Below are positions 1 to 63,819 of a stretch of DNA of 64,000 bases, piece after piece. Position 1 is the first letter of the stretch. The number at the start of each line of letters is the position of its first letter. The notes below the pieces were generated by a model. It was given only the letters and a program-made list of their open reading frames with translations. It had not been told where the DNA came from and ran no database searches. The position numbers were made by a program, and so were the translations under genes. The stretch comes from a phage. The DNA is taken from NCBI GenBank assembly GCA_021469345.1, contig GCA_021469345.1_3049.1, one strand, 5' to 3'.

Positions 1-1528
<1,528 letters not shown>

Positions 1529-1531
1529 GCT

Positions 1532-1561
1532 GTTTACAAGTCCCTCGTGTTGTGTTATAGT
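1532..1561 (+). promoter_or_regulatory. T4-type early promoter (GTTTAC -35-like, TATAGT -10-like)
   Basis: gtttacaag...tgttatagt upstream of alc; same 54 bp recurs at 14741. Confidence 0.5.
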
Positions 1562-1585
1562 AGTCTTACTGACATAACATGAGGA
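1532..1585. repeat. 54-bp perfect direct repeat, copy 1 (promoter + leader + SD)
   Basis: Identical to 14741-14794. Confidence 0.85.
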
Positions 1586-1592
1586 CTTTATG

Positions 1593-2096
1593 ATGGATTT
1601 ACAACTTATTACTACTGAAATGGTCGTTGAAGCATACGGTGATACTACAGATGGGATTTCTGTATTCAAAGGAAATCGTCGAGTTGGATATATCACCGAT
1701 CTTAAGAAAGATTTAGCTAAGCAAGTCAAGCGGAAAACGACCATTAAAGAATATCGAAATCGTCGTCTTGAGCAAGCCCGTGATATGCTTCCTGATGCGG
1801 TTGAAGAGATGAAAGTCTTTTTAGAAAATCAGCTTGCGAAATATGATTGTGAAGTATTCATTAATCAGACTCAACCTAATGTTCATATCAATAACTGTAA
1901 ATGCTATATCATCGTTAATCCTTTGACGGGAAAACACCGCCTTGGGATTAGTAATCCAAATCGTAGTGCATCGGATATGGCAGAAGATGTTGAGGCGTGC
2001 TTTAAAATTTCTAAATCTCCGGCTGAACATCATATTTTAATTAACGGTCTTTCTCAAGACGATATTGTAGAGGTTATTAAAACTTTATGCATGTAA
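1593..2096 (+). CDS. alc: Alc-like host transcription inhibitor (by position and length)
   Basis: 167 aa from second ATG (GAGGA 7 nt upstream); sits between rnlA and the pseT cluster as in T4. Confidence 0.6.
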   Translation: MDLQLITTEMVVEAYGDTTDGISVFKGNRRVGYITDLKKDLAKQVKRKTTIKEYRNRRLEQARDMLPDAVEEMKVFLENQLAKYDCEVFINQTQPNVHINNCKCYIIVNPLTGKHRLGISNPNRSASDMAEDVEACFKISKSPAEHHILINGLSQDDIVEVIKTLCM

Positions 2097-2440
2097 GTAA
2101 TTTTACAGCTGGATTGCTATTACTTGTAATAGCATTTGGCGGAACATCTATTATTTTAAAAAATAAGGTAGAAAGATTAGAAACATCGGTTACTGAAATT
2201 ACAAAAACGGCCAATGAAAACGCTTTAGCATTAGATAATTTGCGAATTCAATATAATTATATTGATGCGATGAATAATAAAAATCGTGAGGCAATTGCTG
2301 CTATTGAGCGTGAAAATGAAAAACTGCGCAAAGACGCAAAGAAGGCGGATGTGGTGGCTCATAAGCCAGGATTGGTTGAAAAACAAATCAACAACTCCTT
2401 CAACAAGTTCGCAGAAGACATCCAGGACCTTTCTAAATGA
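2087..2440 (+). CDS. pseT.3: i-spanin (inner-membrane spanin subunit)
   Basis: N-terminal TM helix (FTAGLLLLVIAFGGTSIIL) followed by coiled-coil-like charged region; 3' end overlaps the next gene; T4 spanins occupy this position. Confidence 0.6.
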   Translation: MHVSNFTAGLLLLVIAFGGTSIILKNKVERLETSVTEITKTANENALALDNLRIQYNYIDAMNNKNREAIAAIERENEKLRKDAKKADVVAHKPGLVEKQINNSFNKFAEDIQDLSK

Positions 2441-2736
2441 TTAAACTATCAGCAGTAATATTATCTATTGGACTTCTAGTTGGTTGTTCTACAAAGCCTC
2501 TAGAAGTAAAGAAAGAAACAGTTCATCCTAATTGGCCTGTACAAATAAAGTCATATGACGAAGCTAAACTATCTTGGCAAGTTAAAGTTATCGATGGTAA
2601 AGCTTGGGTCGGTATGCCATTTGAAGATTCCCAGGAATTTCGTATTTGGCTTAATGATGTAAAACGATATGTACATGACCAGAAAACTATGATATGTTAT
2701 TATCGTCAAGAGTTAAAAGAGGATAAATGTAAATGA
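2437..2736 (+). CDS. pseT.2: o-spanin (outer-membrane lipoprotein spanin subunit)
   Basis: Signal peptide with lipobox LLVG-C (MIKLSAVILSIGLLVGCS); ATGA overlap with upstream gene. Confidence 0.6.
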   Translation: MIKLSAVILSIGLLVGCSTKPLEVKKETVHPNWPVQIKSYDEAKLSWQVKVIDGKAWVGMPFEDSQEFRIWLNDVKRYVHDQKTMICYYRQELKEDKCK

Positions 2737-2957
2737 TTTCATGGCATCAATTTGAACATCTCAAAGGATTGATTTATGAATCCGAGATGGCTGCAATGAT
2801 TTATGGACGCCAGATTCAGCGATTAGAATCTTTACCTCCAACTAATGATGTTTTATTAGCTCAATCACGTGCTAATCTCAAAAATGAATATCAAAATAAG
2901 TGGGGTAAAGCATCTAAAGACCTACATGATTATATTCAATCATTGGTTGAGAAATAA
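2733..2957 (+). CDS. hypothetical protein (pseT.1-region ORF)
   Basis: ATG start overlapping upstream stop; 74 aa; compact same-strand packing. Confidence 0.5.
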   Translation: MISWHQFEHLKGLIYESEMAAMIYGRQIQRLESLPPTNDVLLAQSRANLKNEYQNKWGKASKDLHDYIQSLVEK

Positions 2958-2960
2958 TAA

Positions 2961-4168
<1,208 letters not shown>

Positions 4169-4232
4169 TGGCGTGGCATCATGAAACTTGGGATATTATT
4201 AATTGGCTTGAAGAAAATTATGTGAGGTAAAT

Positions 4233-4508
4233 ATGTTTCCGACTTATTCTAAAATCGTAGAAGTAGTGTTTAGTCAAATTATCGCTAATAATATGTTTGA
4301 AAAGCTTGATAACGCAGCCGAACTTCGAATCCACGCTCAAGTGACTCATGTATTGAACACTTTGCTTCCAGACCAGGTGGATTCTGTTGCCATTACGCTG
4401 TATCCAGGTTCCGCGCATATCATTGTCGTATTCGATCTTGATGCTGAGTTAGTTATCAAAGGCGATATTCGTTTTGAATCACAGACATCAGAATTCAAGG
4501 CAATTTAA
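4233..4508 (+). CDS. hypothetical protein (cd.x region)
   Basis: 91-aa ORF with ATG and upstream GAGG. Confidence 0.5.
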   Translation: MFPTYSKIVEVVFSQIIANNMFEKLDNAAELRIHAQVTHVLNTLLPDQVDSVAITLYPGSAHIIVVFDLDAELVIKGDIRFESQTSEFKAI

Positions 4509-4510
4509 CA

Positions 4511-4541
4511 GTTTACTTTACGGTAGAGTTGTGATATTATA
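4511..4541 (+). promoter_or_regulatory. T4-type early promoter
   Basis: GTTTAC 4511-4516, 18-nt spacer, TGATATTAT; -10 lies in the loop of inverted repeat ggtagag/ctctacc. Confidence 0.5.
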
Positions 4542-4569
4542 GCTCTACCAAACAAATGAGGAAAACAAA

Positions 4570-4806
4570 ATGCTAAGTGAAAAACCAATTACTGTTAAAG
4601 AATTCCAAGAAAAAGTTAAACTATTTGCTCAGGAATTGGTAAATAAGGTTTCTGAACGATTTCCAGAAACATCGGTTCGTGTTATTACCGAAACTCCTCG
4701 TTCAGTATTAGTAATTGTGAATCCAGGTGATGGCGATCAAATATCGCATCTTAAATTGGATTTTGATGGATTAGTTGAAGCACAAAGGGTGTATGGCGTA
4801 CTATGA
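4570..4806 (+). CDS. hypothetical protein (cd.x region)
   Basis: 78-aa ORF; SD GAGGAAAA upstream. Confidence 0.5.
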   Translation: MLSEKPITVKEFQEKVKLFAQELVNKVSERFPETSVRVITETPRSVLVIVNPGDGDQISHLKLDFDGLVEAQRVYGVL

Positions 4807-5141
4807 TGAATTTAACTGATATAATTGATAATTGTCTTGAAAACGATACTGGTGATCATAGAGCGCTTGACTCTGAAACAGCAAAGTTCATTAGAATAAC
4901 TTTAATGAATGATACTCTGGTGAATAGTATTCATCCTTCTGTGTATGATGCTATTATTGTGACGAAGTATCCAGTTGAGCTTCACAAAAAGATGACTGGC
5001 GCAGTTTTTATTGATAAGAAAAACCGCTTTAAAGATGGGCAGAATATAATTAGTTCTGTTATTAAAAGTATAACTAAACTTCGTCACGAAATTTATCGTG
5101 TTGAAACTACTAAATCTGCTTATCTGGTGGTTATGAAATGA
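4803..5141 (+). CDS. hypothetical protein (cd.x region)
   Basis: 112-aa ORF; ATGA overlaps on both sides. Confidence 0.5.
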   Translation: MMNLTDIIDNCLENDTGDHRALDSETAKFIRITLMNDTLVNSIHPSVYDAIIVTKYPVELHKKMTGAVFIDKKNRFKDGQNIISSVIKSITKLRHEIYRVETTKSAYLVVMK

Positions 5142-5719
5142 AAGCGAGTACAGTACTTCAAATTGCATATTTAGTATCACAGGAATCAAAATGTTGCTCC
5201 TGGAAGGTAGGAGCAGTAATTGAAAAGAATGGACGTATTATTTCTACTGGGTATAATGGTTCACCCGCAGGGGGTGTGAACTGTTGTGATTATGCTGCTG
5301 AGCAAGGATGGTTGTTGAATAAGCCTAAACATACTATCATTCAAGGCCATAAGCCTGAATGCGTATCATTTGGTTCAACTGATCGTTTTGTCTTGGCGAA
5401 AGAACATCGTAGTGCTCACTCGGAATGGTCATCTAAAAATGAAATTCATGCTGAACTAAATGCAATTTTGTTTGCTGCACGAAATGGTTCTTCTATTGAA
5501 GGTGCTACTATGTATGTAACACTTTCTCCTTGTCCAGATTGCGCAAAAGCGATAGCTCAATCTGGTATTAAAAAGCTAGTTTATTGTGAAACATATGATA
5601 AAAATAAACCTGGCTGGGATGATATTCTGCGAAATGCAGGTATTGAAGTGTTTAATGTTCCTAAGAAAAACTTGAATAAGTTAAACTGGGAAAATATCAA
5701 CGAATTCTGCGGTGAATAA
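5138..5719 (+). CDS. cd: dCMP deaminase
   Basis: 193 aa; zinc-binding cytidine/dCMP deaminase signature HAELNA...PCPDCA. Confidence 0.9.
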   Translation: MKASTVLQIAYLVSQESKCCSWKVGAVIEKNGRIISTGYNGSPAGGVNCCDYAAEQGWLLNKPKHTIIQGHKPECVSFGSTDRFVLAKEHRSAHSEWSSKNEIHAELNAILFAARNGSSIEGATMYVTLSPCPDCAKAIAQSGIKKLVYCETYDKNKPGWDDILRNAGIEVFNVPKKNLNKLNWENINEFCGE

Positions 5720-5955
5720 TGAAATTTCGTTTGGTAAAGCTCACAGCAATTAGTTCTTATTCTAATGAGAACATCTCGTTTGCTGTAGAGTATAAGAAAT
5801 ATTTTTTCTCTAAATGGAAACAGTATTATAAGACAAATTGGGTTTGTATTGATAAACCATATAGTTGGAAATCTGATTTAGAAAAATGCCAAAAATTGCT
5901 TTCCACTCTTAAAGAACGCGGAACAACTCATATTAAAACTGTGATAGGTAAATAA
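5719..5955 (+). CDS. hypothetical protein (31.2 position)
   Basis: 78-aa ORF; start overlaps cd stop. Confidence 0.5.
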   Translation: MKFRLVKLTAISSYSNENISFAVEYKKYFFSKWKQYYKTNWVCIDKPYSWKSDLEKCQKLLSTLKERGTTHIKTVIGK

Positions 5956-6264
5956 ATGAAACTGACAACTGAGCAGAAAGTAGCAATTCGTGAAATTTTG
6001 AAAACTAAATTGTCCATGGGTATTTCAAACGTAGTTTTTGAAAAGTCTGACGGTACTATTCGTACTATGAAAGGTACTCGTGATGCAGACTTTATGCCAA
6101 CCATGCAAACTGGTAAATTGACTGAATCTACTCGGAAAGAATCTACTGACATGATTCCAGTATTTGATGTTGAGCTTGGTGCATGGCGAGGTTTTTCTAT
6201 TGACAAATTGATTTCCGTTAATGGTATGAAAGTTGAGCATTTGCTTCAATTTATTGGTAAATAA
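5956..6264 (+). CDS. hypothetical protein (31.1 position)
   Basis: 102-aa ORF. Confidence 0.5.
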   Translation: MKLTTEQKVAIREILKTKLSMGISNVVFEKSDGTIRTMKGTRDADFMPTMQTGKLTESTRKESTDMIPVFDVELGAWRGFSIDKLISVNGMKVEHLLQFIGK

Positions 6265-6298
6265 ATGCTTTAAGAATTATTTGTTATTATTAATTCAT
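6254..6298. repeat. ~45-bp near-identical repeat, copy 1 (contains MotA-box promoter)
   Basis: ggtaaataaatgctttaagaattatttgttattattaa closely matches 63301-63344. Confidence 0.8.
6265..6296 (+). promoter_or_regulatory. T4 middle-mode promoter (MotA box + -10)
   Basis: aTGCTTtA at 6267-6273, then 12 nt, then tattat; upstream of gene 31. Confidence 0.55.
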
Positions 6299-6320
6299 CT
6301 GTTAACAAAAAGGAAAAACG

Positions 6321-6656
6321 ATGTCTGAAGTACAACAGCTACCAATTCGTGCTGTAGGTGAATATGTTATTTTAGTTTCTGAACCTGCACAAGCCGGTGA
6401 TGAAGAAGTTACAGAATCAGGACTTATTATCGGTAAACGTGTTCAAGGTGAAGTTCCTGAACTGTGTGTAATTCACTCTGTTGGTCCTGATGTTCCTGAA
6501 GGTTTTTGTGAAGTTGGTGATTTGACTTCTCTTCCAGTTGGTCAAATTCGAAACGTTCCGCATCCTTTTGTAGCTCTGGGTCTTAAGCAGCCAAAAGAAA
6601 TTAAACAAAAATTCGTTACCTGTCACTATAAAGCTATTCCGTGTCTTTATAAGTGA
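6321..6656 (+). CDS. 31: co-chaperonin gp31 (GroES analogue for capsid folding)
   Basis: 111 aa; matches remembered T4 gp31 length and position; SD AAAGGAAAAA. Confidence 0.85.
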
Positions 6657-6664
6657 TATAAATA
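6657..6664 (+). promoter_or_regulatory. candidate late promoter (TATAAATA)
   Basis: Exact TATAAATA immediately after gene 31 stop, about 140 bp upstream of rIII. Confidence 0.4.
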
Positions 6665-6803
6665 ATAATATGAATTGGGTGTCGGAATAATAAGTTAACC
6701 GAACAATTCTACGTGGTAGTCTACAACTGAGAGATCTGTCGAAAGAAGATGAAATTCAGAAGAACGTGACTACCGAGTTTTAATCTCTAACGAGAATTTT
6801 TAA

Positions 6804-7052
6804 ATGATTAAACAATTACAACACGCTCTTGAACTGCAACGAAACGCATGGAATAATGGTCACGAAAACTATGGCGCATCTATTGATGTTGAAGCCGAAG
6901 CTCTTGAAATCCTGCGTTATTTCAAACATCTGAATCCTGCTCAAACTGCATTAGCTGCTGAGCTCCAGGAAAAAGATGAACTTAAGTATGCTAAGCCTCT
7001 GGCTTCTGCTGCACGAAAAGCAGTTCGTCACTTTGTGGTAACACTGAAGTAA
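6804..7052 (+). CDS. rIII: rIII-like lysis-inhibition accessory protein (by position and length)
   Basis: 82 aa, same length and position as T4 rIII. Confidence 0.6.
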   Translation: MIKQLQHALELQRNAWNNGHENYGASIDVEAEALEILRYFKHLNPAQTALAAELQEKDELKYAKPLASAARKAVRHFVVTLK

Positions 7053-7255
7053 TTTATTGGAGATTCACTGCCTTAGTGTGAGCTAAAATCGAGGAGCCGT
7101 CGAACTGTCTGATTAATGATTTGCGAATCATTATAGTTTTAAGACCCCGGCAGTTTTACGGTGTACCTCTTGAATGTGAATGATGACGGGTTTATGGTTA
7201 TCCTGGTCGTTAAATATCCAAAAACCTATGTTCCCCTTGAGGGCTTGCGCAGGCA

Positions 7256-7474
7256 ATGCCAATAAGTCCTGCATTTTCATTTAAAAGAGAATTTATAATG
7301 GCAAAACAAGCTAAAGCAAAGAAAGCAGTTGAAAAGAAAGTTGGTGATTCTAAACGCGCTGGCTACAAGCGTGGGTCGAACTCTCGTATCAATCAAACTG
7401 TTGAGAAGATCATGCGCCGAGCACGTGCGGTTCTTCGAGATGATGCTTCTCGTTTTGGTAAGCAGAAAGCATAA
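7256..7474 (+). CDS. hypothetical small basic (Lys/Arg-rich) protein
   Basis: 72-aa ORF, or 58 aa from internal ATG 7298; strongly basic; followed by a terminator. Confidence 0.45.
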   Translation: MPISPAFSFKREFIMAKQAKAKKAVEKKVGDSKRAGYKRGSNSRINQTVEKIMRRARAVLRDDASRFGKQKA

Positions 7475-7478
7475 GTTG

Positions 7479-7505
7479 AGGACTCCTTCGGGAGTCCTTT
7501 TTTAT
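7479..7505 (+). terminator. rho-independent terminator
   Basis: aggactcc-ttcg-ggagtcct hairpin followed by a T-run. Confidence 0.7.
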
Positions 7506-7527
7506 TTTCCAAAGATTGCATAAAGTT

Positions 7528-7560
7528 GTTTACAGTATGGTTCCTTTGTGATAGTATTAT
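7528..7560 (+). promoter_or_regulatory. T4-type early promoter
   Basis: GTTTAC 7528-7533 ... tgtgatagtattat. Confidence 0.5.
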
Positions 7561-7584
7561 TTTACACAAACAAAGGAGAATAAA

Positions 7585-7917
7585 ATGAAAACGATTAATC
7601 TGAACGCTGCAGTTAAAACTAAATGCTTCAATGGTAAATATGATGAAACTATGTGGTTCTTAATGGCAGTTGAAGGTGATATTATTGAAGTAGAAACAAC
7701 AGAAGGTATGGGAACAGATTTCACCTTTACAATTCAAGTTCATAATTTCTTTACTGGTTGGATTTATGAATTGAATACAGTAATCGTTGGAAAAATTGAA
7801 CAAAATGAATTAGGTGAATGGTATTATGTTACAGCTCGCCAACGTGCCGAACGCTTAATTGAGAAGATGAAAAAAGTTGGTAAACTTGACATGAAGCACT
7901 GGAAAGTAGTAAAATAA
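7585..7917 (+). CDS. hypothetical protein (30.x cluster)
   Basis: 110-aa ORF; SD AAGGAG. Confidence 0.55.
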   Translation: MKTINLNAAVKTKCFNGKYDETMWFLMAVEGDIIEVETTEGMGTDFTFTIQVHNFFTGWIYELNTVIVGKIEQNELGEWYYVTARQRAERLIEKMKKVGKLDMKHWKVVK

Positions 7918-7919
7918 TT

Positions 7920-7950
7920 GTTTACTTTGGTACAGGATATGATATTATAT
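7920..7950 (+). promoter_or_regulatory. T4-type early promoter
   Basis: GTTTAC 7920-7925 ... TGATATTAT; -10 within inverted repeat ggtacagg/cctgtacc. Confidence 0.5.
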
Positions 7951-7984
7951 ACCTGTACCGCAATTAAACATCTTGGAGAATAAA

Positions 7985-8350
7985 ATGAACTACATTAACT
8001 TTGAACGTAAATATGTTTCTAATGGTATTGCAGGTTCTATTGATACTATTTGCCTTTGGAAACATCAAAATGGATCAGTATGCGAAATCGATCAGTATAT
8101 GACTCCTAATTACGTTTATATGCGATTTGAAAATGGCATCACGGTTTCAATCACAATGGAAGGTTCCAACTTTAAAATCGCTCTGGATGATGATTTTCGT
8201 CAACGCGATTTAGGGACTCATCCTTGCTGGAATGGTGCTAATCGCAAGCTTTTGGTTAAAACTTGGATTCGTCATATTCTGAGTAACAGAGCTAAACCTA
8301 AGCATCTTGAAGCAATCTTTGATGTAGTTCTTAACGAATTTGATATTTAA
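7985..8350 (+). CDS. hypothetical protein (30.x cluster)
   Basis: ORF-track start 7973 is TTG; ATG 7985 has GGAGAA SD; 121 aa. Confidence 0.55.
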   Translation: MNYINFERKYVSNGIAGSIDTICLWKHQNGSVCEIDQYMTPNYVYMRFENGITVSITMEGSNFKIALDDDFRQRDLGTHPCWNGANRKLLVKTWIRHILSNRAKPKHLEAIFDVVLNEFDI

Positions 8351-8358
8351 AATAAATG

Positions 8359-8376
8359 AGGGGCTTCGGCCCCTTA
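8359..8376 (+). terminator. intergenic stem-loop (possible terminator/attenuator)
   Basis: aggggc-ttcg-gcccct hairpin between two same-strand ORFs. Confidence 0.4.
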
Positions 8377-8390
8377 CTGAGGAAAATACT

Positions 8391-8678
8391 ATGTTTATGA
8401 CTACTTATTTTGATACCCGTAAAAATTTCTGTGAAGTGGTTTTCTCAAAGGCACCCAAAGACCTTCCTGCTCATTTGCAACCTACCAGTGAATCGATTAA
8501 AAATTATGTTAATGTAGTCTGCCCTTTAGAGTTCCGTACTGTAAATGGGCGCGATACTTTAGCTATCACTAAACTTAATCGTGAAATTGACATTGATCCT
8601 TCAATTGCGCGTGAAATTAACATTTCTGATATTGGCGGCGGTAATGTTAAATCGCACGGTTTTCAGATGAGGTTCTAA
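8391..8678 (+). CDS. hypothetical protein (30.x cluster)
   Basis: ORF-track start 8340 is TTG and spans the hairpin; ATG 8391 preceded by GAGGAAAA. Confidence 0.5.
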   Translation: MFMTTYFDTRKNFCEVVFSKAPKDLPAHLQPTSESIKNYVNVVCPLEFRTVNGRDTLAITKLNREIDIDPSIAREINISDIGGGNVKSHGFQMRF

Positions 8679-8875
8679 TGAAATTCTTTTTAGGTCAAAC
8701 TGTTGAATTAAAGGGAGTTGGTATACCTGGATTAATTTCTAAGGTTCTACCTCCATTTAAATGGAGCGATGTTCAAATAAAAGAGGCTTATATTGTTTCC
8801 TGGGTAGATGGAAATGAAGACCTTCGTATGGGTGATGAATTATCTCCTATTTACGGATTAAAGGAATTAGTATGA
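8678..8875 (+). CDS. hypothetical protein (30.x cluster)
   Basis: 65-aa ORF, ATGA-type overlap. Confidence 0.5.
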   Translation: MKFFLGQTVELKGVGIPGLISKVLPPFKWSDVQIKEAYIVSWVDGNEDLRMGDELSPIYGLKELV

Positions 8876-9078
8876 ATATAATTAATAAGATTTTTGGAAT
8901 TCAGTACATTAAGGTCACATATAAAGTAACAGATAAAAATCCGTATACTGATGAACATGAAGAACCACAAGTTAAGTCTATTATATTAGAAAAGGACCCT
9001 AACTGGCCAGTTGAATTTCGTCTTCCTTGCTATGGTCATTGGGCTGATGTTGAAATTATAAGTATTGAAAATGCCTGA
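8872..9078 (+). CDS. hypothetical protein (30.x cluster)
   Basis: 68-aa ORF; SD AAGGAA. Confidence 0.5.
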   Translation: MNIINKIFGIQYIKVTYKVTDKNPYTDEHEEPQVKSIILEKDPNWPVEFRLPCYGHWADVEIISIENA

Positions 9079-9529
9079 GTTAGAGATTAGAAGCAATTTT
9101 AGATGGCCATCATGCGCATTAAGCAATTTCGCCCAATGGCCTTTCGTTATGGATGGTATCCAATTTGGAGGTCTCGAAGGATTCCTCCAAGGATGTAAGG
9201 TGAAAAATGTTGAACAACAAAGACGTATATTTGGGTTGTCTGGATTGGCTGCACAGCAAGCTGGAAGGTCTTATGCAAGAGCTCAGGACCGTGGAACTCT
9301 CTTCTGGTTAGGAGTTCCGTTTTCAAGATACTCCGAAGCGTGGAAAGAATTATACACAAATGCATATTTTGAAGCCGCGATCCAAAATAAGGGGTTTCGT
9401 GATGCCTTACAAGCCTCTAAAGGAAAAATTTTGAAGCACAGCATGGCCAGCCACCTAACAAAAGATGATACAATACTAACTGAAGCTGAATTTATTGATG
9501 TGTTAAACCTATTAAGAGACTCTTTATGA
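9071..9529 (+). CDS. NADAR/YbiA-like (DUF1768) domain protein, candidate ADP-ribosyl hydrolase
   Basis: Motif LSNFAQWPFVMDGIQF..LEGFLQGCK resembles the YbiA/NADAR core (SNFA.WP..DG....E.yFQ..K); ORF-track start 9065 is TTG, ATG at 9071. Confidence 0.6.
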   Translation: MPELEIRSNFRWPSCALSNFAQWPFVMDGIQFGGLEGFLQGCKVKNVEQQRRIFGLSGLAAQQAGRSYARAQDRGTLFWLGVPFSRYSEAWKELYTNAYFEAAIQNKGFRDALQASKGKILKHSMASHLTKDDTILTEAEFIDVLNLLRDSL

Positions 9530-10365
9530 AGCCTACTATTTTAACTGATATTGATGGAGTATGTTTAAGCTGGCAATCAGGCCTTCCTTATTTTGCTCAG
9601 AAATATAATCTTCCGTTGGAACATATTTTAAAAATGATCCAAGATGAAAAATTTATTTCTCCTGGTAAACTTTTTAATTGTGATGAAGAACTTGGCGTCA
9701 AGTTAATTGAAAAATACAATCGTTCGGATTTTATTCGTTACTTGTCTCCATATAAAGATGCTCTGTGTGTAATTAACAAATTAAAAGAAGATTATAATTT
9801 TGTAGCTGTTACAGCATTGGGTGATTCTATTGACGCTCTGTTGAATCGTCAATTTAATTTGAATGCTCTTTTTCCTGGTGCCTTCTCAGAAGTAATGATG
9901 TGTGGTCATGATTCTTCAAAAGAAGAGTTGTTCAAAAAGGCAAAAGAGAAATATAACGTAATTTGTTATATTGACGATCTCGCTCACCACTGCGATCATG
10001 CGAGTGAAATATTAAATGTTCCTGTTTATTGGATGGCTCGAGGGGAGCGTGACAGTATTCCAAAAACTGCTCAGCGAGTTTATACATGGAACGATGTAGA
10101 GAATAAGCTTTTTTCACCAAAGGAAAATAAAGAAAGTTTTGATCGTGAAAAAGCTATAAAAGATGCAATCGAGAAGATGATTAAAAACGATTCTTTTCGT
10201 TGGAACACTACTTGGAGAACTCCTGGATTTAATCCTTATAATCATCTATATCATCCATATCAGACGCATCCGTTTCAGACATGGAACTATATTAAACCCG
10301 GCGGTATAGAGTATTTGTATAATAGACCTACTTGTGGTGATAATATTTTCCAAGGAGCATTCTAA
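9526..10365 (+). CDS. HAD-superfamily hydrolase-like protein (possible nucleotidase/phosphatase)
   Basis: N-terminal ILTDIDGV (HAD motif I DxDG[TV]) and later YIDD acidic motif; 279 aa. Confidence 0.5.
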   Translation: MKPTILTDIDGVCLSWQSGLPYFAQKYNLPLEHILKMIQDEKFISPGKLFNCDEELGVKLIEKYNRSDFIRYLSPYKDALCVINKLKEDYNFVAVTALGDSIDALLNRQFNLNALFPGAFSEVMMCGHDSSKEELFKKAKEKYNVICYIDDLAHHCDHASEILNVPVYWMARGERDSIPKTAQRVYTWNDVENKLFSPKENKESFDREKAIKDAIEKMIKNDSFRWNTTWRTPGFNPYNHLYHPYQTHPFQTWNYIKPGGIEYLYNRPTCGDNIFQGAF

Positions 10366-10634
10366 TGTTTGTTGTTCACACTATTTATGAAAATGAAGGT
10401 AATACTACACGTGATTACGGTCACGTAAATCAATTTTTTAGATGCAATCCAGAATTCCGATCTCAAAAAGACGAACGAATTTTTAAAAAATGCGTAGAGC
10501 AAGGTTTCATTTATATCAAGCACTGGATGCAAGGAAATAAAGTTAGAACTACATATCATAAGTCTTTGCCTGAGCTTAATGATGAATTGATTTATAATAG
10601 AGCTGTAAACCAAACTCTAAAGGATGAACAATGA
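10365..10634 (+). CDS. hypothetical protein (30.1 position)
   Basis: 89-aa ORF, ATG overlapping upstream stop. Confidence 0.5.
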   Translation: MFVVHTIYENEGNTTRDYGHVNQFFRCNPEFRSQKDERIFKKCVEQGFIYIKHWMQGNKVRTTYHKSLPELNDELIYNRAVNQTLKDEQ

Positions 10635-12094
10635 TTCTTAAAATTCTGAACGAAATAGCATCTATTGGTTCAACTAAGCAGAAGCAAGCAATTCTTGAAA
10701 AGAATAAAGATAATGAATTGCTTAAACGAGTATATCGTCTGACTTATTCTCGTGGGTTGCAGTATTATATTAAGAAATGGCCTAAACCTGGTATTGCTAC
10801 CCAGAGTTTTGGAATGTTGACTCTTACCGATATGCTTGACTTCATTGAATTCACATTAGCTACTCGGAAATTGACTGGAAATGCAGCAATTGAGGAATTA
10901 ACTGGATATATCACTGATGGTAAAAAAGATGATGTTGAAGTTTTGCGTCGGGTGATGATGCGAGACCTTGAATGTGGTGCTTCAGTATCTATTGCAAACA
11001 AAGTTTGGCCAGGTTTAATTCCTGAACAACCTCAAATGCTTGCAAGTTCTTATGATGAAAAAGGCATTAATAAGAATATCAAATTTCCAGCTTTTGCCCA
11101 GTTAAAAGCTGATGGAGCTCGGTGCTTTGCCGAAGTCAGAGGTGATGAATTAGATGATGTTCGTCTTTTATCACGAGCCGGTAATGAATATCTAGGATTA
11201 GATCTTCTTAAGGAAGAATTAATCAAAATGACCGCTGAAGCCCGCCAGATTCATCCAGAAGGCGTGTTAATTGATGGCGAATTGGTATACCATGAGCAAG
11301 TTAAAAAGGAACCAGAAGGCCTAGATTTTCTTTTTGATGCTCATCCTGAAAACAGTAAAGTTAAAGACTTCACAGAAGTAGCTGAATCACGTACTGCATC
11401 TAATGGCATCGCCAATAAATCTTTAAAGGGAACCATTTCTGAAAAAGAAGCTCAATGCATGAAGTTTCAGGTCTGGGATTATGTTCCGTTGGTAGAAATA
11501 TACGGTCTTCCTGCATTTCGTTTGAAATATGATGTACGTTTTTCTAAACTAGAACAAATGACATCAGGCTATGATAAAGTAATTTTAATTGAAAACCAGG
11601 TAGTAAATAACCTAGATGAAGCTAAGGTAATTTATAAAAAGTATATTGACCAAGGTCTTGAAGGTATTATTCTCAAAAATATCGATGGATTATGGGAAAA
11701 TGCTCGTTCAAAAAATCTCTATAAATTTAAAGAAGTAATTGATGTTGATTTAAAAATTGTAGGAATTTATCCTCACCGTAAAGACCCTACTAAAGCAGGT
11801 GGATTTATTCTTGAATCAGAGTGTGGAAAAATTAAGGTAAATGCTGGTTCAGGCTTAAAAGATAAAGCCGGTGTAAAATCGCATGAACTTGACCGTACTC
11901 GCATTATGGAAAACCAAAATTATTATATTGGAAAAATTCTAGAGTGCGAATGCAACGGTTGGTTAAAATCTGATGGCCGCACTGATTACGTTAAATTATT
12001 TCTTCCGATTGCGATTCGTTTACGCGAAGATAAAACTAAAGCTAATACATTTGAGGATGTATTTGGTGATTTTCATGAGGTAACTGGTCTATGA
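10631..12094 (+). CDS. 30: ATP-dependent DNA ligase
   Basis: 487 aa; adenylation motif KADGAR; same length as T4 gp30. Confidence 0.92.
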   Translation: MILKILNEIASIGSTKQKQAILEKNKDNELLKRVYRLTYSRGLQYYIKKWPKPGIATQSFGMLTLTDMLDFIEFTLATRKLTGNAAIEELTGYITDGKKDDVEVLRRVMMRDLECGASVSIANKVWPGLIPEQPQMLASSYDEKGINKNIKFPAFAQLKADGARCFAEVRGDELDDVRLLSRAGNEYLGLDLLKEELIKMTAEARQIHPEGVLIDGELVYHEQVKKEPEGLDFLFDAHPENSKVKDFTEVAESRTASNGIANKSLKGTISEKEAQCMKFQVWDYVPLVEIYGLPAFRLKYDVRFSKLEQMTSGYDKVILIENQVVNNLDEAKVIYKKYIDQGLEGIILKNIDGLWENARSKNLYKFKEVIDVDLKIVGIYPHRKDPTKAGGFILESECGKIKVNAGSGLKDKAGVKSHELDRTRIMENQNYYIGKILECECNGWLKSDGRTDYVKLFLPIAIRLREDKTKANTFEDVFGDFHEVTGL

Positions 12095-12279
12095 AAGCTT
12101 ACTTAGAAACAATTGTCATTGCTCAAAAAGAAGGTGGAGATGTTTCTACTTCTGTATCACAAGTCATTCTCGAATTTGTAGATGCATATGCTTATAATAA
12201 ATTCACAGAAACATTTGATGCCTATGAAAAAGGTCCAAAGTTTGAAATATACCGTACTCTCTTACCACTAGATTATTAA
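12091..12279 (+). CDS. hypothetical protein
   Basis: 62-aa ORF overlapping ligase stop, followed by a terminator. Confidence 0.45.
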   Translation: MKAYLETIVIAQKEGGDVSTSVSQVILEFVDAYAYNKFTETFDAYEKGPKFEIYRTLLPLDY

Positions 12280-12300
12280 AGGCCTTCGGGCCTTTAATTT
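12278..12300 (+). terminator. rho-independent terminator
   Basis: aaaggcc-ttcg-ggccttt hairpin then aatttt. Confidence 0.65.
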
Positions 12301-12308
12301 TATAAATA
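12301..12308 (+). promoter_or_regulatory. late promoter (TATAAATA) for alt
   Basis: Exact TATAAATA about 24 bp upstream of the alt start. Confidence 0.6.
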
Positions 12309-12331
12309 GAATAAACACTAGAGAGGTTATG

Positions 12332-14380
12332 ATGGAACTTATTACAGAATTATTTGATGAAGATACTACTCTTCCGATTACAAACTTAAATCCAAAGAAG
12401 AAAATACCACAAATTTTTTCAGTTCATGTTGATGACGCAATTGAACAACCAGGCTTTCGTTTATGTACCTATACATCTGGAGGTGATACTAATCGTGATT
12501 TAAAGATGGGCGATAAAATGATGCATATTGTTCCTTTTACATTAACCGCTAAAGGTTCAATTGCTAAATTGAAAGGTCTTGGTCCAAGCCCAATTAATTA
12601 TATCAATTCGGTTTTTACTGTTGCAATGCAAACAATGCGTCAGTATAAAATTGATGCCTGCATGCTTCGTATTCTTAAGTCTAAAACCGCCGGTCAAGCT
12701 CGACAAATTCAAGTTATTGCTGATAGACTTATCCGTAGTCGTTCAGGTGGCAGATACGTCCTTCTTAAGGAACTCTGGGATTATGATAAAAAGTATGCAT
12801 ATATTCTTATACATCGCAAAAATGTATCACTAGAAGACATTCCAGGGGTTCCGGAAATTAGTACCGAGCTCTTTACTAAAGTTGAATCGAAGGTCGGTGA
12901 TGTTTATATCAATAAAGATACTGGAGCTCAAGTAACTAAAAATGAGGCAATTGCAGCATCTATTGCACAAGAAAATGATAAACGTTCTGACCAAGCTGTA
13001 ATCGTTAAAGTTAAAATTTCCCGTAGAGCAATTGCACAAAGTCAGTCATTGGAATCTTCTAGATTTGAAACACCGATGTTTCAAAAATTTGAGGCTTCAG
13101 CGGCAGAATTAAATAAACCAGCGGACGCGCCTTTAATTTCTGATTCTAATGAATTAACGGTAATTTCTACTTCAGGATTTGCACTAGAGAATGCTCTTAG
13201 CAGTGTTACAGCTGGGATGGCATTCAGAGAAGCTTCTATAATTCCTGAAGATAAAGAATCCATTATTAATGCAGAAATAAAAAATAAAGCTTTAGAAAAA
13301 TTACGAAAAGAATCTATTACTTCAATAAAAACTTTAGAAACTATTGCTTCTATCGTCGATGATACTTTAGAAAAATATAAAGGTGCTTGGTTTGAAAGAA
13401 ATATTAACAAACATTCGCATTTAAATCAAGATGCTGCAAATGAGTTAGTACAAAATTCTTGGAATGCAATAAAAACAAAGATTATTCGAAGAGAATTACG
13501 TGGATATGCTCTTACCGCTGGATGGTCATTACATCCTATAGTCGAAAATAAAGATTCATCTAAATACACACCAGCGCAAAAACGCGGAATTCGTGAATAT
13601 GTAGGTTCAGGATATGTAGACATGAATAATGCTCTTTTGGGATTATATAATCCAGATGAGCGTACAAGTATTTTAACAGCATCTGAAATAGAACAAGCCA
13701 TTGATAATTTAGATTCAGCCTTTAAAAATGGTGAACGATTACCAAAAGGTATTACTTTGTATCGTTCACAACGAATGTTACCTTCAATATATGAAGCAAT
13801 GGTAAAAAATCGAGTTTTTTATTTTAGAAACTTTGTGTCAACATCATTATATCCAAATATTTTTGGTACTTGGATGACTGATTCATCTATAGGTGTTTTA
13901 CCAGACGAAAAGCGTCTAAGTGTTTCTATTGATAAAACTGATGAAGGACTAGTAAATTCTAGCGATAATTTAGTTGGAATTGGATGGGTTATTACTGGGG
14001 CTGATAAGGTCAATGTTGTTTTACCCGGTGGAAGTTTAGCGCCTTCAAATGAAATGGAAGTCATTTTGCCACGTGGATTAATGGTCAAAGTTAATAAAAT
14101 AACCGATGCATCTTACAACGATGGAACAGTTAGAACTAACAACAAGCTTATTCAAGCTGAAGTTATGACCACAGAAGAACTCACCGAATCGGTAATCTAT
14201 GACGGAGACCATTTAATGGAAACTGGTGAATTGGTTACAATGACAGGTGATATAGAAGACAGAGTTGACTTTGCATCATTTGTTTCATCAAATGTTAAAC
14301 AGAAAGTAGAATCATCTCTTGGAATTATTGCGTCTTGCATAGATATTGCAAACATGCCTTACAAGTTCGTTCAAGGATAA
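12332..14380 (+). CDS. alt: Alt ADP-ribosyltransferase (packaged, modifies host RNA polymerase)
   Basis: 682 aa from second ATG; ART-like R / S-T-S / E-x-E elements in the C-terminal half (LYRSQ..., FVSTSLY..., MEVILPRG); same length and position as T4 Alt. Confidence 0.88.
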   Translation: MELITELFDEDTTLPITNLNPKKKIPQIFSVHVDDAIEQPGFRLCTYTSGGDTNRDLKMGDKMMHIVPFTLTAKGSIAKLKGLGPSPINYINSVFTVAMQTMRQYKIDACMLRILKSKTAGQARQIQVIADRLIRSRSGGRYVLLKELWDYDKKYAYILIHRKNVSLEDIPGVPEISTELFTKVESKVGDVYINKDTGAQVTKNEAIAASIAQENDKRSDQAVIVKVKISRRAIAQSQSLESSRFETPMFQKFEASAAELNKPADAPLISDSNELTVISTSGFALENALSSVTAGMAFREASIIPEDKESIINAEIKNKALEKLRKESITSIKTLETIASIVDDTLEKYKGAWFERNINKHSHLNQDAANELVQNSWNAIKTKIIRRELRGYALTAGWSLHPIVENKDSSKYTPAQKRGIREYVGSGYVDMNNALLGLYNPDERTSILTASEIEQAIDNLDSAFKNGERLPKGITLYRSQRMLPSIYEAMVKNRVFYFRNFVSTSLYPNIFGTWMTDSSIGVLPDEKRLSVSIDKTDEGLVNSSDNLVGIGWVITGADKVNVVLPGGSLAPSNEMEVILPRGLMVKVNKITDASYNDGTVRTNNKLIQAEVMTTEELTESVIYDGDHLMETGELVTMTGDIEDRVDFASFVSSNVKQKVESSLGIIASCIDIANMPYKFVQG

Positions 14381-14383
14381 ATC

Positions 14384-14735
14384 ATGGAACTTATTACATA
14401 ATTATTTGACGGCGCTTCGGCGCCGGTTGTTAACTTAAATCCTAAGCATAAAATACCACAAATTTTTGCTATTCAAGCCGGCGAAGAAAGCGTGCTTCCT
14501 GGATTTAGATTTTGTACATACACCTCTGGCGGTGATACAGATAAAACGTTAAACCAGGCGACAAAATGATGCATATCGTAATGATAGGTGTTAATGAGAA
14601 ACTATCATTAGTTAAGCTTAAAAACTTGGGTGGAAATCCAATTGGTGTCATTAATGCTGTTTTGATACTGCTCTTCAAACAATGAAACAGTATAAAATCG
14701 ACGCATGCCTATTACGCGTACTAAAAAGTTCAAAA
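14384..14735 (+). pseudogene. degraded 5' fragment of an alt paralogue
   Basis: Nucleotide similarity to alt 12332-12720 (atggaacttattaca..., ...aaaataccacaaatttt..., ...ggtgatac...aaaatgatgcatat..., ...aaaatcgacgcatgcct...) with a stop after codon 5, frameshifts and deletions. Confidence 0.7.
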
Positions 14736-14740
14736 TGTGG

Positions 14741-14770
14741 TTTACAAGTCCCTCGTGTTGTGTTATAGTA
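14741..14770 (+). promoter_or_regulatory. T4-type early promoter (repeat copy)
   Basis: Same sequence as the promoter at 1532; upstream of ORF 14801. Confidence 0.5.
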
Positions 14771-14794
14771 GTCTTACTGACATAACATGAGGAA
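14741..14794. repeat. 54-bp perfect direct repeat, copy 2
   Basis: Identical to 1532-1585. Confidence 0.85.
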
Positions 14795-14800
14795 CACAAA

Positions 14801-15091
14801 ATGAAATCTTCTTTACGCTTTTTAGGTCAAGAACTTGTAGTTGAAGGCGTTATTCCTGCTGATAACGCTTTTAATGAAGCAGTTTATGATGAATTTATCA
14901 AAATTTTCGGAACAGATAAAAAGTTTGGAATTTTTCCTTCTGAAAATTTTTCAAAGCCAGAACAGACTGAAAGTATTTTTCAGGGTGTAGTAACAGGTAA
15001 ATTTGAGTCAGAAGCTCCGGTAAAAATTGAAGTTTATATTGAAGACAGTTTAGTTGCTTCAGTTGCTGCTTTTATTTCATTCCGTAAATAA
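14801..15091 (+). CDS. hypothetical protein (alt.-x region)
   Basis: 96-aa ORF with ATG and SD GAGGAA supplied by the repeated leader. Confidence 0.55.
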   Translation: MKSSLRFLGQELVVEGVIPADNAFNEAVYDEFIKIFGTDKKFGIFPSENFSKPEQTESIFQGVVTGKFESEAPVKIEVYIEDSLVASVAAFISFRK

Positions 15092-15095: not shown

Positions 15096-15117
15096 ATGGG
15101 GACCGAAAGGTCCCCAT
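15096..15117. terminator. bidirectional hairpin terminator
   Basis: atggggacc-gaaa-ggtccccat between convergent ORF 14801 (+) and gene 54 (-). Confidence 0.65.
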
Positions 15118-59999: not shown

Positions 60000-60530
60000 A
60001 TGTCGCAAGCTCTGCAACAAATTTTTAACCAAGCAAATACAACTAACTTTGTAGTATCAATACCACACAGTAATACTACATCTGCTTTTACTTTAAATGC
60101 TCAGTCAGTTCCTATTCCAGGAATTAGAATACCTGTTACTGATACCGTGACTGGGCCGTTTGGACTGGGCCGAGCACAACGTCCAGGTGTTACATTTGAG
60201 TACGATCCACTCATCGTGAGATTTATAGTTGATGAAGAACTTAAGTCGTGGATAGGAATGTATGAATGGATGCTAGGAACTAGCAACTATCTTACAGGTG
60301 AAAATACTGCCCAAAAAACAGGTCCTGAGTACATTACGCTTTACATCTTAGATAATAGCAAAACTGAAATCGTGATGTCAATAAATTTTTATAAGCCTTG
60401 GGTTTCTGACCTATCTGAAGTAGAATTTAGCTACACAGAAGATTCAGACCCGGCTTTAGTATGTACTGCAACGATTCCTTACACCTATTTTCAAGTAGAA
60501 AAAGATGGAAAAATTATAGCAGAAGTTTAA
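60000..60530 (+). CDS. 3: tail tube terminator / sheath stabiliser gp3
   Basis: 176 aa from ATG 60000 (GAGGAA SD); ORF track extends 27 codons upstream. Confidence 0.85.
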   Translation: MSQALQQIFNQANTTNFVVSIPHSNTTSAFTLNAQSVPIPGIRIPVTDTVTGPFGLGRAQRPGVTFEYDPLIVRFIVDEELKSWIGMYEWMLGTSNYLTGENTAQKTGPEYITLYILDNSKTEIVMSINFYKPWVSDLSEVEFSYTEDSDPALVCTATIPYTYFQVEKDGKIIAEV

Positions 60531-60554
60531 TGCTTCAGTTTCATGTGTTATAAT
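60529..60554 (+). promoter_or_regulatory. middle-mode promoter (MotA box + -10) for gene 1
   Basis: TGCTTCA at 60531-60537, 11-nt spacer, TATAAT at 60549-60554. Confidence 0.55.
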
Positions 60555-60579
60555 CTTAACTAAATTTGAGGAGAAACAT

Positions 60580-61292
60580 ATGAAACTAATCTTTTTAAGT
60601 GGTGTAAAGCGTAGCGGAAAAGATACTACTGCAGATTTTATCATGAATAATTATTCTGCAGTTAAATACCAACTTGCTGGTCCTATTAAGGATGCACTGG
60701 CTTATGCATGGGGAGTATTTGCAGCAAACACTGACTATCCTTGCTTAACTCGTAAAGAGTTTGAAGGAATTGACTATGATCGTGAAACTAATTTAAATCT
60801 GACTAAATTAGAAGTAATTACGATTATGGAACAAGCATTTTGCTATCTTAATAGTAAAAGCCCAATTAAAGGTGTGTTTGTTTTTGATGACGCAGTTAAT
60901 TTCGTAGCATTTAACAAGATTGCTGACGTTATAAATAATATTGAAGATCAATGGTCAGTCCGTCGTCTGATGCAAGCCCTAGGTACGGATTTGATTGTTA
61001 ATAACTTCGATCGCATGTACTGGGTAAAATTATTTGCTTTAGATTATCTTGATAAATTTAACTCAGGTTATGATTATTATATCGTTCCTGATACTCGTCA
61101 AGATCATGAAATGGATGCGGCTAGGGCGATGGGTGCTACAGTAATTCATGTAGTTCGTCCTGGTCAAAAATCCAATGATACACATATTACAGAAGCTGGA
61201 TTGCCAATTCGTGATGGTGATTTAGTAATTACAAACGATGGTTCTCTTGAAGAACTTTTTTCTAAAATTAAAAATACACTAAAGGTACTATA

Positions 61293-62002: not shown

Positions 62003-62035
62003 GTTTACACGTTGATGAGGTAGTGATACTATTAT
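62003..62035 (+). promoter_or_regulatory. T4-type early promoter
   Basis: GTTTAC 62003-62008 ... TGATACTATTAT; -10 inside inverted repeat tgatgag/ctcatca. Confidence 0.5.
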
Positions 62036-62062
62036 CTCATCAAAATTAATTAGGAAAATAAA

Positions 62063-62367: not shown

Positions 62368-62400
62368 TGTTTACATAGGGTTTTAGTTGTGATACTATTA
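62368..62400 (+). promoter_or_regulatory. T4-type early promoter
   Basis: Shares tttcacaaagttgtttaca with the 62003 promoter; -10 tgatactatta inside inverted repeat ataggg/ccctat. Confidence 0.5.
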
Positions 62401-62426
62401 CCCTATCAACTACCGAGGAGAATAAA

Positions 62427-62612
62427 ATGAAACGTTGTGAATTAATTCGAAATGTTGCTATTGCAATTTCTGCTTCCGCTTTTAGTTTTTCAATGTTTGT
62501 TGGATTTATATGCGGATTATTGACTACAGCAGAAAATGTTTTTTCACTTGTAGTAGCATTTTTAATTGGTTTAATCGCTATTGTTATGGATAAAATTTCT
62601 AAAGGTGAATAA
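62427..62612 (+). CDS. hypothetical small membrane protein
   Basis: 61 aa, two hydrophobic segments; SD GAGGAG. Confidence 0.5.
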   Translation: MKRCELIRNVAIAISASAFSFSMFVGFICGLLTTAENVFSLVVAFLIGLIAIVMDKISKGE

Positions 62613-63404: not shown

Positions 63405-63477
63405 TGGGAATTAGCCAAGTTGGTAAGGCATAGCACTTTGACTGCTAGATGCAAAGGTTCGAGTCCTTTATTCCCAG
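63405..63477 (+). tRNA. tRNA-Gln (anticodon UUG)
   Basis: Cloverleaf by eye: acceptor tgggaat/attccca, anticodon stem tagca/tgcta, loop cuUUGac, T-loop GGTTCGAGTCC. Confidence 0.85.
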
Positions 63478-63478
63478 C

Positions 63479-63565
63479 GCGAGAATGGTCAAATTGGTAA
63501 AGGCACAGCACTTAAAATGCTGCGGAATAATTTCCTTGTGGGTTCGAGTCCCACTTCTCGCACCA
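63479..63565 (+). tRNA. tRNA-Leu (anticodon UAA), long variable arm, CCA encoded
   Basis: Acceptor gcgagaa/ttctcgc, anticodon stem cagca/tgctg, loop cuUAAaa, GGTTCGAGTCC. Confidence 0.85.
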
Positions 63566-63570
63566 AATTT

Positions 63571-63644
<74 letters not shown>

Positions 63645-63654
63645 ATTTAATTTA

Positions 63655-63728
63655 CTCCGTGTAGCTCAGTTTGGTAGAGCGTCTGCTTTGGGAGCAGAAT
63701 GTCGTAGGTTCAAATCCTGCCACGGAGA
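63655..63728 (+). tRNA. tRNA-Pro (anticodon UGG)
   Basis: Acceptor ctccgtg/cacggag, anticodon stem tctgc/gcaga, loop uuUGGga, GGTTCAAATCC. Confidence 0.85.
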
Positions 63729-63730
63729 CT

Positions 63731-63817: not shown

Positions 63818-63819
63818 TT

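Follow-up and report, generated by a model that had tools for sequence, protein, structure and literature searches.

Why should the -10 element of a phage early promoter lie between the two arms of an inverted repeat? The question is raised by a stretch of 64,000 nucleotides of phage DNA (contig GCA_021469345.1_3049.1, the whole of which is called the window here), where a first-pass annotation noticed such repeats at several GTTTAC-type early promoters, among them the gene 30.7 promoter at position 7920. We consider, with a probability of roughly 60%, that these sites are composite early-promoter/stem-loop cassettes of the kind called PeSL (a strong early promoter plus a stem-loop), with a hairpin that would fold only in RNA reading through from an upstream promoter and whose function we infer.

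Judged by its sequence, the window comes from a T4-like phage (Tequatrovirus), as positions 7000-9000 are about 98% identical to many Tequatrovirus genomes. Positions 1-15000 (+) correspond to the T4 early region rnlA-alc-pseT-cd-31-rIII-30.9-30.8-30.7...30-alt, in reverse orientation with respect to the T4 record. Since the GenBank and RefSeq records of T4 annotate no promoters, these were defined by a pattern scan (a GTTTAC-like -35, a spacer of 16-19 nt and TAnnnT, a TG extension raising the score), and eight intragenic matches were removed manually. The scan gave eight strong early promoters in the window, all on the plus strand, at 1532, 4511, 7528, 7920, 14740, 60525, 62003 and 62369. 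All of them have the form GTTTAC-N17/18-TAnnnT with the TG extension, are followed within 20-37 nt by a Shine-Dalgarno sequence and ATG, and are identical or nearly so to T4 at the matching positions upstream of annotated genes. The six inverted repeats reported by the first-pass annotation are all present at the positions that it gave; it missed two promoters with a helix between spacer and downstream region, at 14740 and 60525.

The gene 30.7 cassette and the excess of repeats

The -35 element of the gene 30.7 early promoter, GTTTAC at 7920-7925 (+), starts 2 nt past the TAA stop codon of gene 30.8 (gene end 7917), and the promoter sequence is identical to that of the T4 promoter at 129918, upstream of 30.7. 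The 5' arm of the repeat, GGTACAGG (7929-7936, +), lies within the -35/-10 spacer and upstream of the expected start site. It is followed by the extended -10 element TGaTATTAT (7940-7948, +; hexamer TATTAT at 7943-7948) and by the 3' arm CCTGTACC (7952-7959, +), which covers the discriminator and the initial transcribed region. With the standard sigma-70 geometry, in which transcription starts about 7 nt past the -10 element, the start site is expected at about 7955, inside the 3' arm. That the -10 element lies in the loop of the repeat, as first described, is correct; the position of the 5' arm upstream of the start site had been missed, and so had the continuation of the stem through the extended -10 in sense read-through RNA, where UGUG is predicted to pair with UAUA (G.U and A-U pairs), giving stems of 12-14 bp closed by a 4-nt loop. 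The full hairpin predicted for the read-through RNA of gene 30.7 covers 7919-7970 (+), with -20.1 kcal/mol and z = -4.55. In this predicted RNA the -35 sequence UGUUUA (7919-7924) also pairs with UAAACA (7965-7970) of the 30.7 leader, which brings the hairpin to about 24 pairs, and at 4511 the -35 region is likewise predicted to pair near the Shine-Dalgarno sequence.

The ribosome-binding site of gene 30.7, GGAGAATAAAA (7975-7985, +; AUG at 7985), is unpaired in the predicted hairpin. The same sequence, GGAGAATAAAA(TG), recurs at 7575-7585 and 62417-62427, and all three copies match the published consensus for strong RegB/S1 cleavage, GG*AGRAYARAA; RegB is blocked by RNA secondary structure (PMC3014915, with the consensus as GGAGRAYARAA). 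The sequence gtagtaaaataatt precedes 7920 and atttcacaaagtt precedes 62003 and 62369, so that, as read from the sequence, the upstream region of a PeSL cassette is present too.

Repeats were scored between two fixed zones, the spacer on the 5' side and, on the 3' side, the 20 nt that follow the -10 hexamer. At 5/8 window promoters these zones form a perfect repeat of 7 bp or more, against 2.1% of 18,266 arbitrary window positions with identical geometry (binomial P = 2e-7). When zones were swapped between promoters, keeping both consensus and composition, repeats of at least 7 bp appeared in 3.6% of cases in the window and 1.7% in T4, where 5/8 and 11/37, respectively, were observed. In an exact permutation of the seven independent window promoters, based on duplex energies over the 44 nt downstream, the true pairing was the best of 5040 (p = 1/5040). 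The excess over AT-rich controls, against which the first-pass annotation had staked its proposal, is thus clear.

The complete T4 genome was assembled and scanned identically, which gave 37 early promoters. Repeats reach 6 bp or more at 16 of these, 7 bp or more at 11 and 8 bp or more at 7 (permuted nulls 7.8%, 1.7% and 0.3%). The mean energy of the spacer-to-downstream duplex was -11.4 kcal/mol versus -7.0 with permuted partners (p < 5e-5), and values of -14 kcal/mol or below occurred at 13/37 promoters versus 2.3% in the null. The repeat centres around the T4 promoters form two populations, one centred on the -10 hexamer and another, at -76 to -55, of G+C-rich tetraloop hairpins with T-runs, which are canonical terminators. 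We also sampled 26 loci surrounding homologues of gp31 (protein identity 100% to 62%), in which 10/20 independent promoter families of non-T4 lineages reached -16 kcal/mol or below, versus 1.3% with permuted partners. In this T4-like phage an inverted repeat around the -10 box is carried by about half of the early promoters, and the feature is real, conserved and selected. The scan of this and related genomes proposed at the outset therefore yields a recurrent architecture stronger than the one first claimed, genome-wide in T4 and in divergent T4-like lineages and accompanied by compensatory changes.

The 5' arm lies within the spacer at 8/8 window promoters, from -18 to -3 relative to the -10 element, and the 3' arm separates two classes: in class A (4511, 7920, 62003 and 62369) it starts 1-4 nt beyond the -10 hexamer, in class B (1532, 14740, 7528 and 60525) 11-22 nt beyond it. 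The class A hairpins end 21 nt (4511), 26 nt (7920), 20 nt (62003) and 21 nt (62369) short of the AUG, and in the predicted fold their GGAG ribosome-binding site is unpaired, that is, it is not sequestered. In class B the 3' arm is the Shine-Dalgarno sequence or the AUG itself, which places the ribosome-binding site within the helix.

Conservation of the pairing and the strand that folds

Among orthologous promoters the helix is kept while the sequences of its arms are replaced. At the cd.2 promoter, T4 and the window share the arms GGTAGAG/CTCTACC; the counterparts are CGGTAGGACT/AGTCCTACCG in lineage L013, CTGGAAG/CTTCCAG in L032, CCGGAAGTA/TACTTCCGG in L020 and CTGGAAGT/ACTTCCGG, with a U.G pair, in L031. 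The lineage series shows a compensatory path, from CCGGAAGTA/TACTTCCGG through CTGGAAGT/ACTTCCGG with its U.G pair to CTGGAAG/CTTCCAG. In an ungapped MAFFT alignment of 11 cd.2 promoters (alignment A1), scored with the 12-pair helix of the window, standard pairs fill 87.5% of the cells versus 33-67% once the partner has been shifted by 1-3 columns, double-sided changes occur in 7/12 pairs, and the covariation score was reached by 0/500 shuffles. This alignment was used in place of a column-wise analysis of the 30.7 promoter, abandoned because helix register and spacer length vary by lineage. The arms at the 30.7 promoter in other lineages include TTTGGTACAGGT/ACCTGTACCAAA, TTTGTAGGAGAC/GTCTCCTACAAA, GCTGATTGAGTGT/ACACTCAATCAGC, GGTGAGGGTCT/AGACTCTCACC and TTGGTGTAGGAGT/ACTCTTACACCAA, and some lineages have a spacer-to-Shine-Dalgarno helix instead, e.g., CTCCGTTGTATGT/ACATACAACGGAG.

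This replacement of arms bears directly on the idea of a protein-binding palindrome, according to which a dimeric host or phage regulator would recognize the repeat and control the early promoters. The dyad symmetry is centred on the -10 element, and the T4 ipII and ipIII promoters have identical arms (GAATTGTGA/TCACAATTC), both of which speak for such a regulator. Against it, the arms are unrelated across promoters (GGTACAGG, GGTAGAG, TGATGAG and ATAGGGT), the orthologous promoters of other lineages carry different complementary arms, and arm length, loop length and register are all variable. Because arm sequences vary while complementarity stays, this reading, one of three offered by the first-pass annotation, has lost its support, and we regard it as very improbable indeed.

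The mismatches within the helices speak to whether RNA or DNA is the folded molecule. The helix search penalized all mismatches equally, and the internal mismatches in unique helices were 14 G.T, 2 A.C and 2 other, a split between G.T and A.C with p of about 0.002 if both transition types were equally likely, as for a DNA palindrome. For a cruciform such an asymmetry would be meaningless, because a cruciform requires the folding of both strands. In alignment A1 the cells comprise 83 Watson-Crick, 22 G.T and 3 A.C combinations, and pairing amounts to 87.5% in the sense and 71.7% in the antisense orientation. The predicted fold is more stable in sense than in antisense at 6/6 window sites compared: -20.1 and -18.3 kcal/mol at 7920, -18.1 and -9.6 at 4511, -15.5 and -8.6 at 62003, -26.0 and -15.4 at 1532, -12.5 and -10.8 at 7528, and -14.2 and -12.1 at 62369. 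In T4 the sense strand folds better at 27/37 promoters and worse at 9.

A structure at the DNA level, either a cruciform or a hairpin of one strand that modulates the melting or the strength of the early promoter, would fit the coincidence of repeat centres with the -10 hexamer, the weak 6-bp repeats at the rnh promoter, which few read-through transcripts are expected to cross, and the long perfect repeats (13-14 bp, 8-nt loops) at T4 57990 and 65799, outside the window. With DNA parameters, however, the window hairpins have only -5 to -8 kcal/mol, with loops of 12-16 nt, or 12-14 nt at 4511, where G.T pairs do not count, and they lack the short loop and the stability on both strands expected of a cruciform. 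The helices also accept G.T far more than A.C, and the 3' arm of class B, 11-22 nt past the -10 element on the Shine-Dalgarno sequence or AUG, is placed as suits an RNA and not promoter melting. The effect on melting suggested by the first-pass annotation is thus poorly supported, and we think it quite unlikely that DNA structure accounts for the repeats. We conclude that what is selected is most likely an RNA helix of the sense strand; the statistical support for this direction is moderate.

The T4 ipII and ipIII promoters (L004, 65799 and 66498) carry long perfect -10-spanning repeats, TCCTAGAATTGTGA/TCACAATTCTAGGA and AATTGTGA/TCACAATT, with 8-nt loops, and are the best candidates for a role at the DNA level or in protein binding.

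An RNA hairpin located directly after a stop codon could also be a terminator. In this interpretation, proposed for the PeSL stem-loops and named by the first-pass annotation as a terminator/promoter composite, the hairpin would end transcription arriving from upstream. The text of Arbiol et al. (PMC2839356) reports terminator-like activity for one RB49 stem, a PeSL stem-loop that cut the expression of a downstream lacZ reporter about as much as rrnB T1. The window hairpins directly follow upstream stop codons, and in T4 a helix of -12 kcal/mol or below was found at 1/6 promoters with a canonical upstream terminator versus 14/31 others (p = 0.086). No window hairpin, however, has a T-run after its 3' arm, the sequence that follows being A-rich instead, and a terminator scan of the window passed over the -10-spanning hairpins while calling only 7478-7499 and 15096-15117. 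The public annotation of a related genome marks only the counterpart of the 7478-7499 hairpin, upstream of the promoter, as an early terminator. Lacking the U-tract that immediately follows the G+C-rich stem-loop of an intrinsic terminator, the hairpins are not canonical intrinsic terminators. Of the three initial suggestions this one comes closest to the PeSL concept; as a matter of intrinsic termination we consider it unlikely.

The two hairpins called by the scan are of the canonical tetraloop type: 7478-7499, upstream of the 30.8 promoter, is GAGGACTCC-TTCG-GGAGTCCTT with a T-run, and 15096-15117, between the convergent alt.-3 and 54, is ATGGGGACC-GAAA-GGTCCCCAT with T-rich tails on both strands and may be bidirectional.

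Other cassettes of the window and related elements

The other class A cassettes repeat the arrangement seen at gene 30.7. Upstream of the cd.2 homologue (4511-4549, +), GTTTAC (4511-4516) is followed by GGTAGAG (4522-4528), the -10 element TATTAT (4535-4540) and CTCTACC (4543-4549), and the sense RNA is predicted to fold into a 12-bp stem with a 4-nt loop. The cassette upstream of ipI (62003-62043, +) has the arms TTGATGAG (62012-62019) and CTCATCAA (62036-62043), with the core TGATGAG/CTCATCA; its helix extends to 14 pairs, one of them G.U, and the T4 counterpart has a perfect 10-bp repeat, TGATGAGGTA/TACCTCATCA. The third (62369-62406, +) has ATAGGGT (62375-62381) and ACCCTAT (62400-62406) around TACTAT (62393-62398). 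At the cd.2 promoter the reverse complement is promoter-like too (4566, minus strand; GTTTTC, 19 nt, TATAAT), the -10 element being nearly palindromic and the leader containing GAAAAC. An antisense promoter as the cause of the symmetry was rejected, as only this site, at 1/8 promoters, matches the promoter pattern.

In class B, the gene 30.8 promoter (7528-7577, +) has the spacer arm TCCTTTGT (7542-7549) and the 3' arm ACAAAGGA (7570-7577), with the core repeat CCTTTGT (7543-7549)/ACAAAGG (7570-7576); the 3' arm overlaps the Shine-Dalgarno GGAG (7575-7578), and the canonical terminator at 7478-7499 lies before the promoter. At the gene 1 promoter (GTTTAA; 60525-60587, +) the spacer arm AGTTTCATGTGT (60537-60548) pairs, with one G.U pair, with ACATATGAAACT (60576-60587), which holds the start codon. 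At the alc promoter (1532-1588, +) the spacer (1538-1558) pairs with 1574-1588 through a helix with G.U pairs and one bulge, of which the repeat TGTTAT/ATAACA near 1553-1579 is only a part; the helix is imperfect and much longer, its 3' strand includes the Shine-Dalgarno GAGGA and extends up to the AUG at 1590, and the read-through RNA has z = -5.1. The alt.-3 promoter (14740-14795, +; arms 14748-14766 and 14782-14795) lies 13 kb away, and its positions 14740-14793 are a 54-nt identical copy of 1532-1585, from the -35 GTTTAC through the Shine-Dalgarno GAGGA, between unrelated flanks. Judged from its sequence, this stretch may be a promoter cassette that was duplicated or is mobile. A common -35 region, extended -10 element and ribosome-binding site unite the paralogous cassettes at 62003, 62369 and 7528, which differ mainly in both arms.

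Two further observations concern exchange in other genomes. In a close relative (L011:11209-11290) the 30.8 promoter is preserved as far as the leader, after which comes unrelated sequence containing a GGGCTTCGGCCC hairpin, a breakpoint inside the cassette that, as a sequence junction, is consistent with cassette-mediated gene replacement. The alc promoters at L029:4364 and L030:4250 have arms, ATGGTAGGACT/AGTCCTACCAT, equal to those of the cd.2 promoters at L013:8015 and L018:7679 (CGGTAGGACT/AGTCCTACCG), and this sharing of arms between alc in L029/L030 and cd.2 in L013-L018 suggests a possible transfer of cassettes between loci.

If cassettes are shuffled in this way, the repeats might have no selected function and be by-products of recombination, or of template-switch (quasi-palindrome) mutation, in repeated cassettes. 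The identity of 1532-1585 with 14740-14793, the identical arms at different promoters in different lineages, and the reports of PeSLs as recombination sites (PMC2839356, PMC4122927) favour this account. Yet complementarity is kept with entirely different arms in many lineages, and G.U intermediates are seen. The placement of the repeats is also specific, with the 5' arm upstream of the start site and the 3' arm coinciding with the ribosome-binding site in half of the cases, and we find a mere by-product improbable.

Beyond the cassettes, the window contains a cluster of seven tRNA genes (63405-63968, +), corresponding to the T4 tRNA region; a comparison with Rfam gave no family on the cassette sites and matches to tRNAs only.

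The closest described relatives of these cassettes are the PeSLs. In the text of Arbiol et al. 2010 (PMC2839356), PeSLs of RB49 and phi1 have the stem-loop most often between -35 and -10 or overlapping -10, and among the RB49 PeSLs that we examined both arrangements are present, with stems inside the spacer or spanning the -10 element. Comeau et al. 2014 (PMC4122927) extended PeSLs to PST/T4, describing in its text T4-type stem-loops (AGNA-loop-TCNT) just upstream of the promoter, which correspond to the canonical terminators at -76 to -55, such as 7478-7499. The window sites resemble PeSLs in having an AT-rich region ahead of a strong early promoter of the sigma-70 type, a stem-loop within or next to the promoter, and then a Shine-Dalgarno sequence and ATG, and in being repeated between small early genes. 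The repetition and shuffling typical of PeSLs are also seen, in the 54-nt copy, the common backbones, the L011 junction and the arm exchange between alc and cd.2. They are unlike PeSLs in that the T4-type arms are of mixed sequence instead of poly-G/poly-C and lack a T-run after them, and, unlike the PeSL description, about half of the window helices pair with the Shine-Dalgarno sequence or AUG. The feature is best filed as a further member, or a positional subclass, of the PeSL composite elements, in Tequatrovirus. Neither PMC2839356 nor PMC4122927 describes in its text, figures aside, the -10-spanning helices in T4 proper, their covariation and G.U bias, or the class of helices pairing with the Shine-Dalgarno sequence, and a search within a limited literature library for T4 start-site, Term-seq or dyad-symmetry reports found nothing relevant.

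A second relative is the control of T4 e, soc, 49 and I-TevI, where a late promoter lies within the sequence encoding the 5' strand of an RNA helix that sequesters the ribosome-binding site (PMC3014915). Here too the promoter lies inside the 5'-strand sequence, transcripts from upstream would fold the helix and those from the internal promoter would not, and the 3' strand of class B is the Shine-Dalgarno sequence or AUG; the 5' strand is upstream of the internal start site, as placed by sigma-70 geometry, at 8/8 promoters. The systems differ in that e, soc, 49 and I-TevI have late promoters that delay late functions and the window has sigma-70 early promoters, and in that the flagged class A hairpins leave the ribosome-binding site uncovered.

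Comparison with two bacterial elements gives a similar mixture. The hairpins are like Rho-independent terminators in forming a stable stem-loop directly after a stop codon, with 12-14 bp and a 4-nt loop in the sense RNA, and unlike them in having no U-tract, an A-rich downstream sequence, and many A-U and G.U pairs in their stems. REP-type 3' barriers are intercistronic stabilizer hairpins of polycistronic bacterial mRNAs. By analogy, the window hairpins may resemble them, as they lie between cistrons, have no terminator tail, and stand just upstream of the GGAG target of the RegB endonuclease; overlap with a promoter is peculiar to the phage elements.

A hairpin for read-through RNA

The arms occupy the only variable segments of the promoter, namely, the spacer between -35 and -10 on one side and the discriminator plus the first transcribed bases on the other. 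Because they are confined to segments not fixed by the consensus, the -10 box becomes the hairpin loop. Because the 5' arm is upstream of the start site, transcripts of the promoter itself cannot form the helix; they would lack the 5' arm and, in class A, also most of the 3' arm. RNA reading through from an upstream promoter, which is normal in the tandem early units of T4, would instead fold the hairpin, which then stands after the upstream stop codon and ahead of the downstream ribosome-binding site. For class A the most likely role would be that of an intercistronic barrier or insulator in polycistronic early RNA that leaves the GGAG ribosome-binding and RegB site open. It could act by attenuating read-through, as in PeSLs, or as a 3' barrier that, once the downstream GGAG has been cut, shields the upstream cistron's 3' end. 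For class B the ribosome-binding site would be masked in read-through RNA and free in locally initiated RNA.

Several points weigh against this proposal. The folding of the RNA in vivo and every statement on hairpin function are deduced, as are the start sites at the window promoters, which assume sigma-70 geometry. The excess of G.T has a p of only about 0.1 against a composition-based chance null, in which G.T and A.C stand at about 2.5:1, and promoters with an upstream canonical terminator show no more than a trend towards lacking the helix (p = 0.086). The modelled accessibility of the T4 ribosome-binding sites is 0.62 in own transcripts, 0.43 in read-through RNA and 0.44 in a reversed-spacer control. 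Because the rnh promoter points away from gene 34, few read-through transcripts should cross it, yet a weak 6-bp repeat surrounds its -10 element, AGATTT/AAATCT in T4-like phages and ACTCAG/CTGAGT in one divergent lineage (2/4 lineages; L035:1420-1500 and L043:1420-1500). T4 also has an antisense origin transcript inside gene 34, and we do not take the rnh promoter as a clean control without read-through. Lastly, we know of no established mechanism in E. coli by which class A hairpins could attenuate transcription without a U-tract.

Masking of the ribosome-binding site as a general function was rejected, as the reversed-spacer control matches the native read-through mean, and it is kept for class B only.

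A broader version, in which spacer and discriminator form a general isoform switch and every early leader folds according to whether it starts at its own or at an upstream promoter, is a tentative extension that we hold to be doubtful. If it were true, translation, RegB sensitivity and decay would be set separately for the immediate-early and delayed-early copies of a message, which would give a sequence-level handle on the old question of what makes delayed-early RNA behave differently.

Should the proposed roles hold, about half of the T4-type early promoters would be dual-purpose, each serving RNA polymerase as a DNA signal and providing an RNA structure to transcripts that arrive from upstream. 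This would explain a constraint on the spacer and discriminator, which are usually treated as free, and would provide an early counterpart to the control of e, soc, 49 and I-TevI. The PeSL model would be refined for T4, where upstream terminators alone had been described. The complementarity of the arms would then have to be kept when T4 early promoters are engineered or reused, and annotation pipelines could mark these sites.

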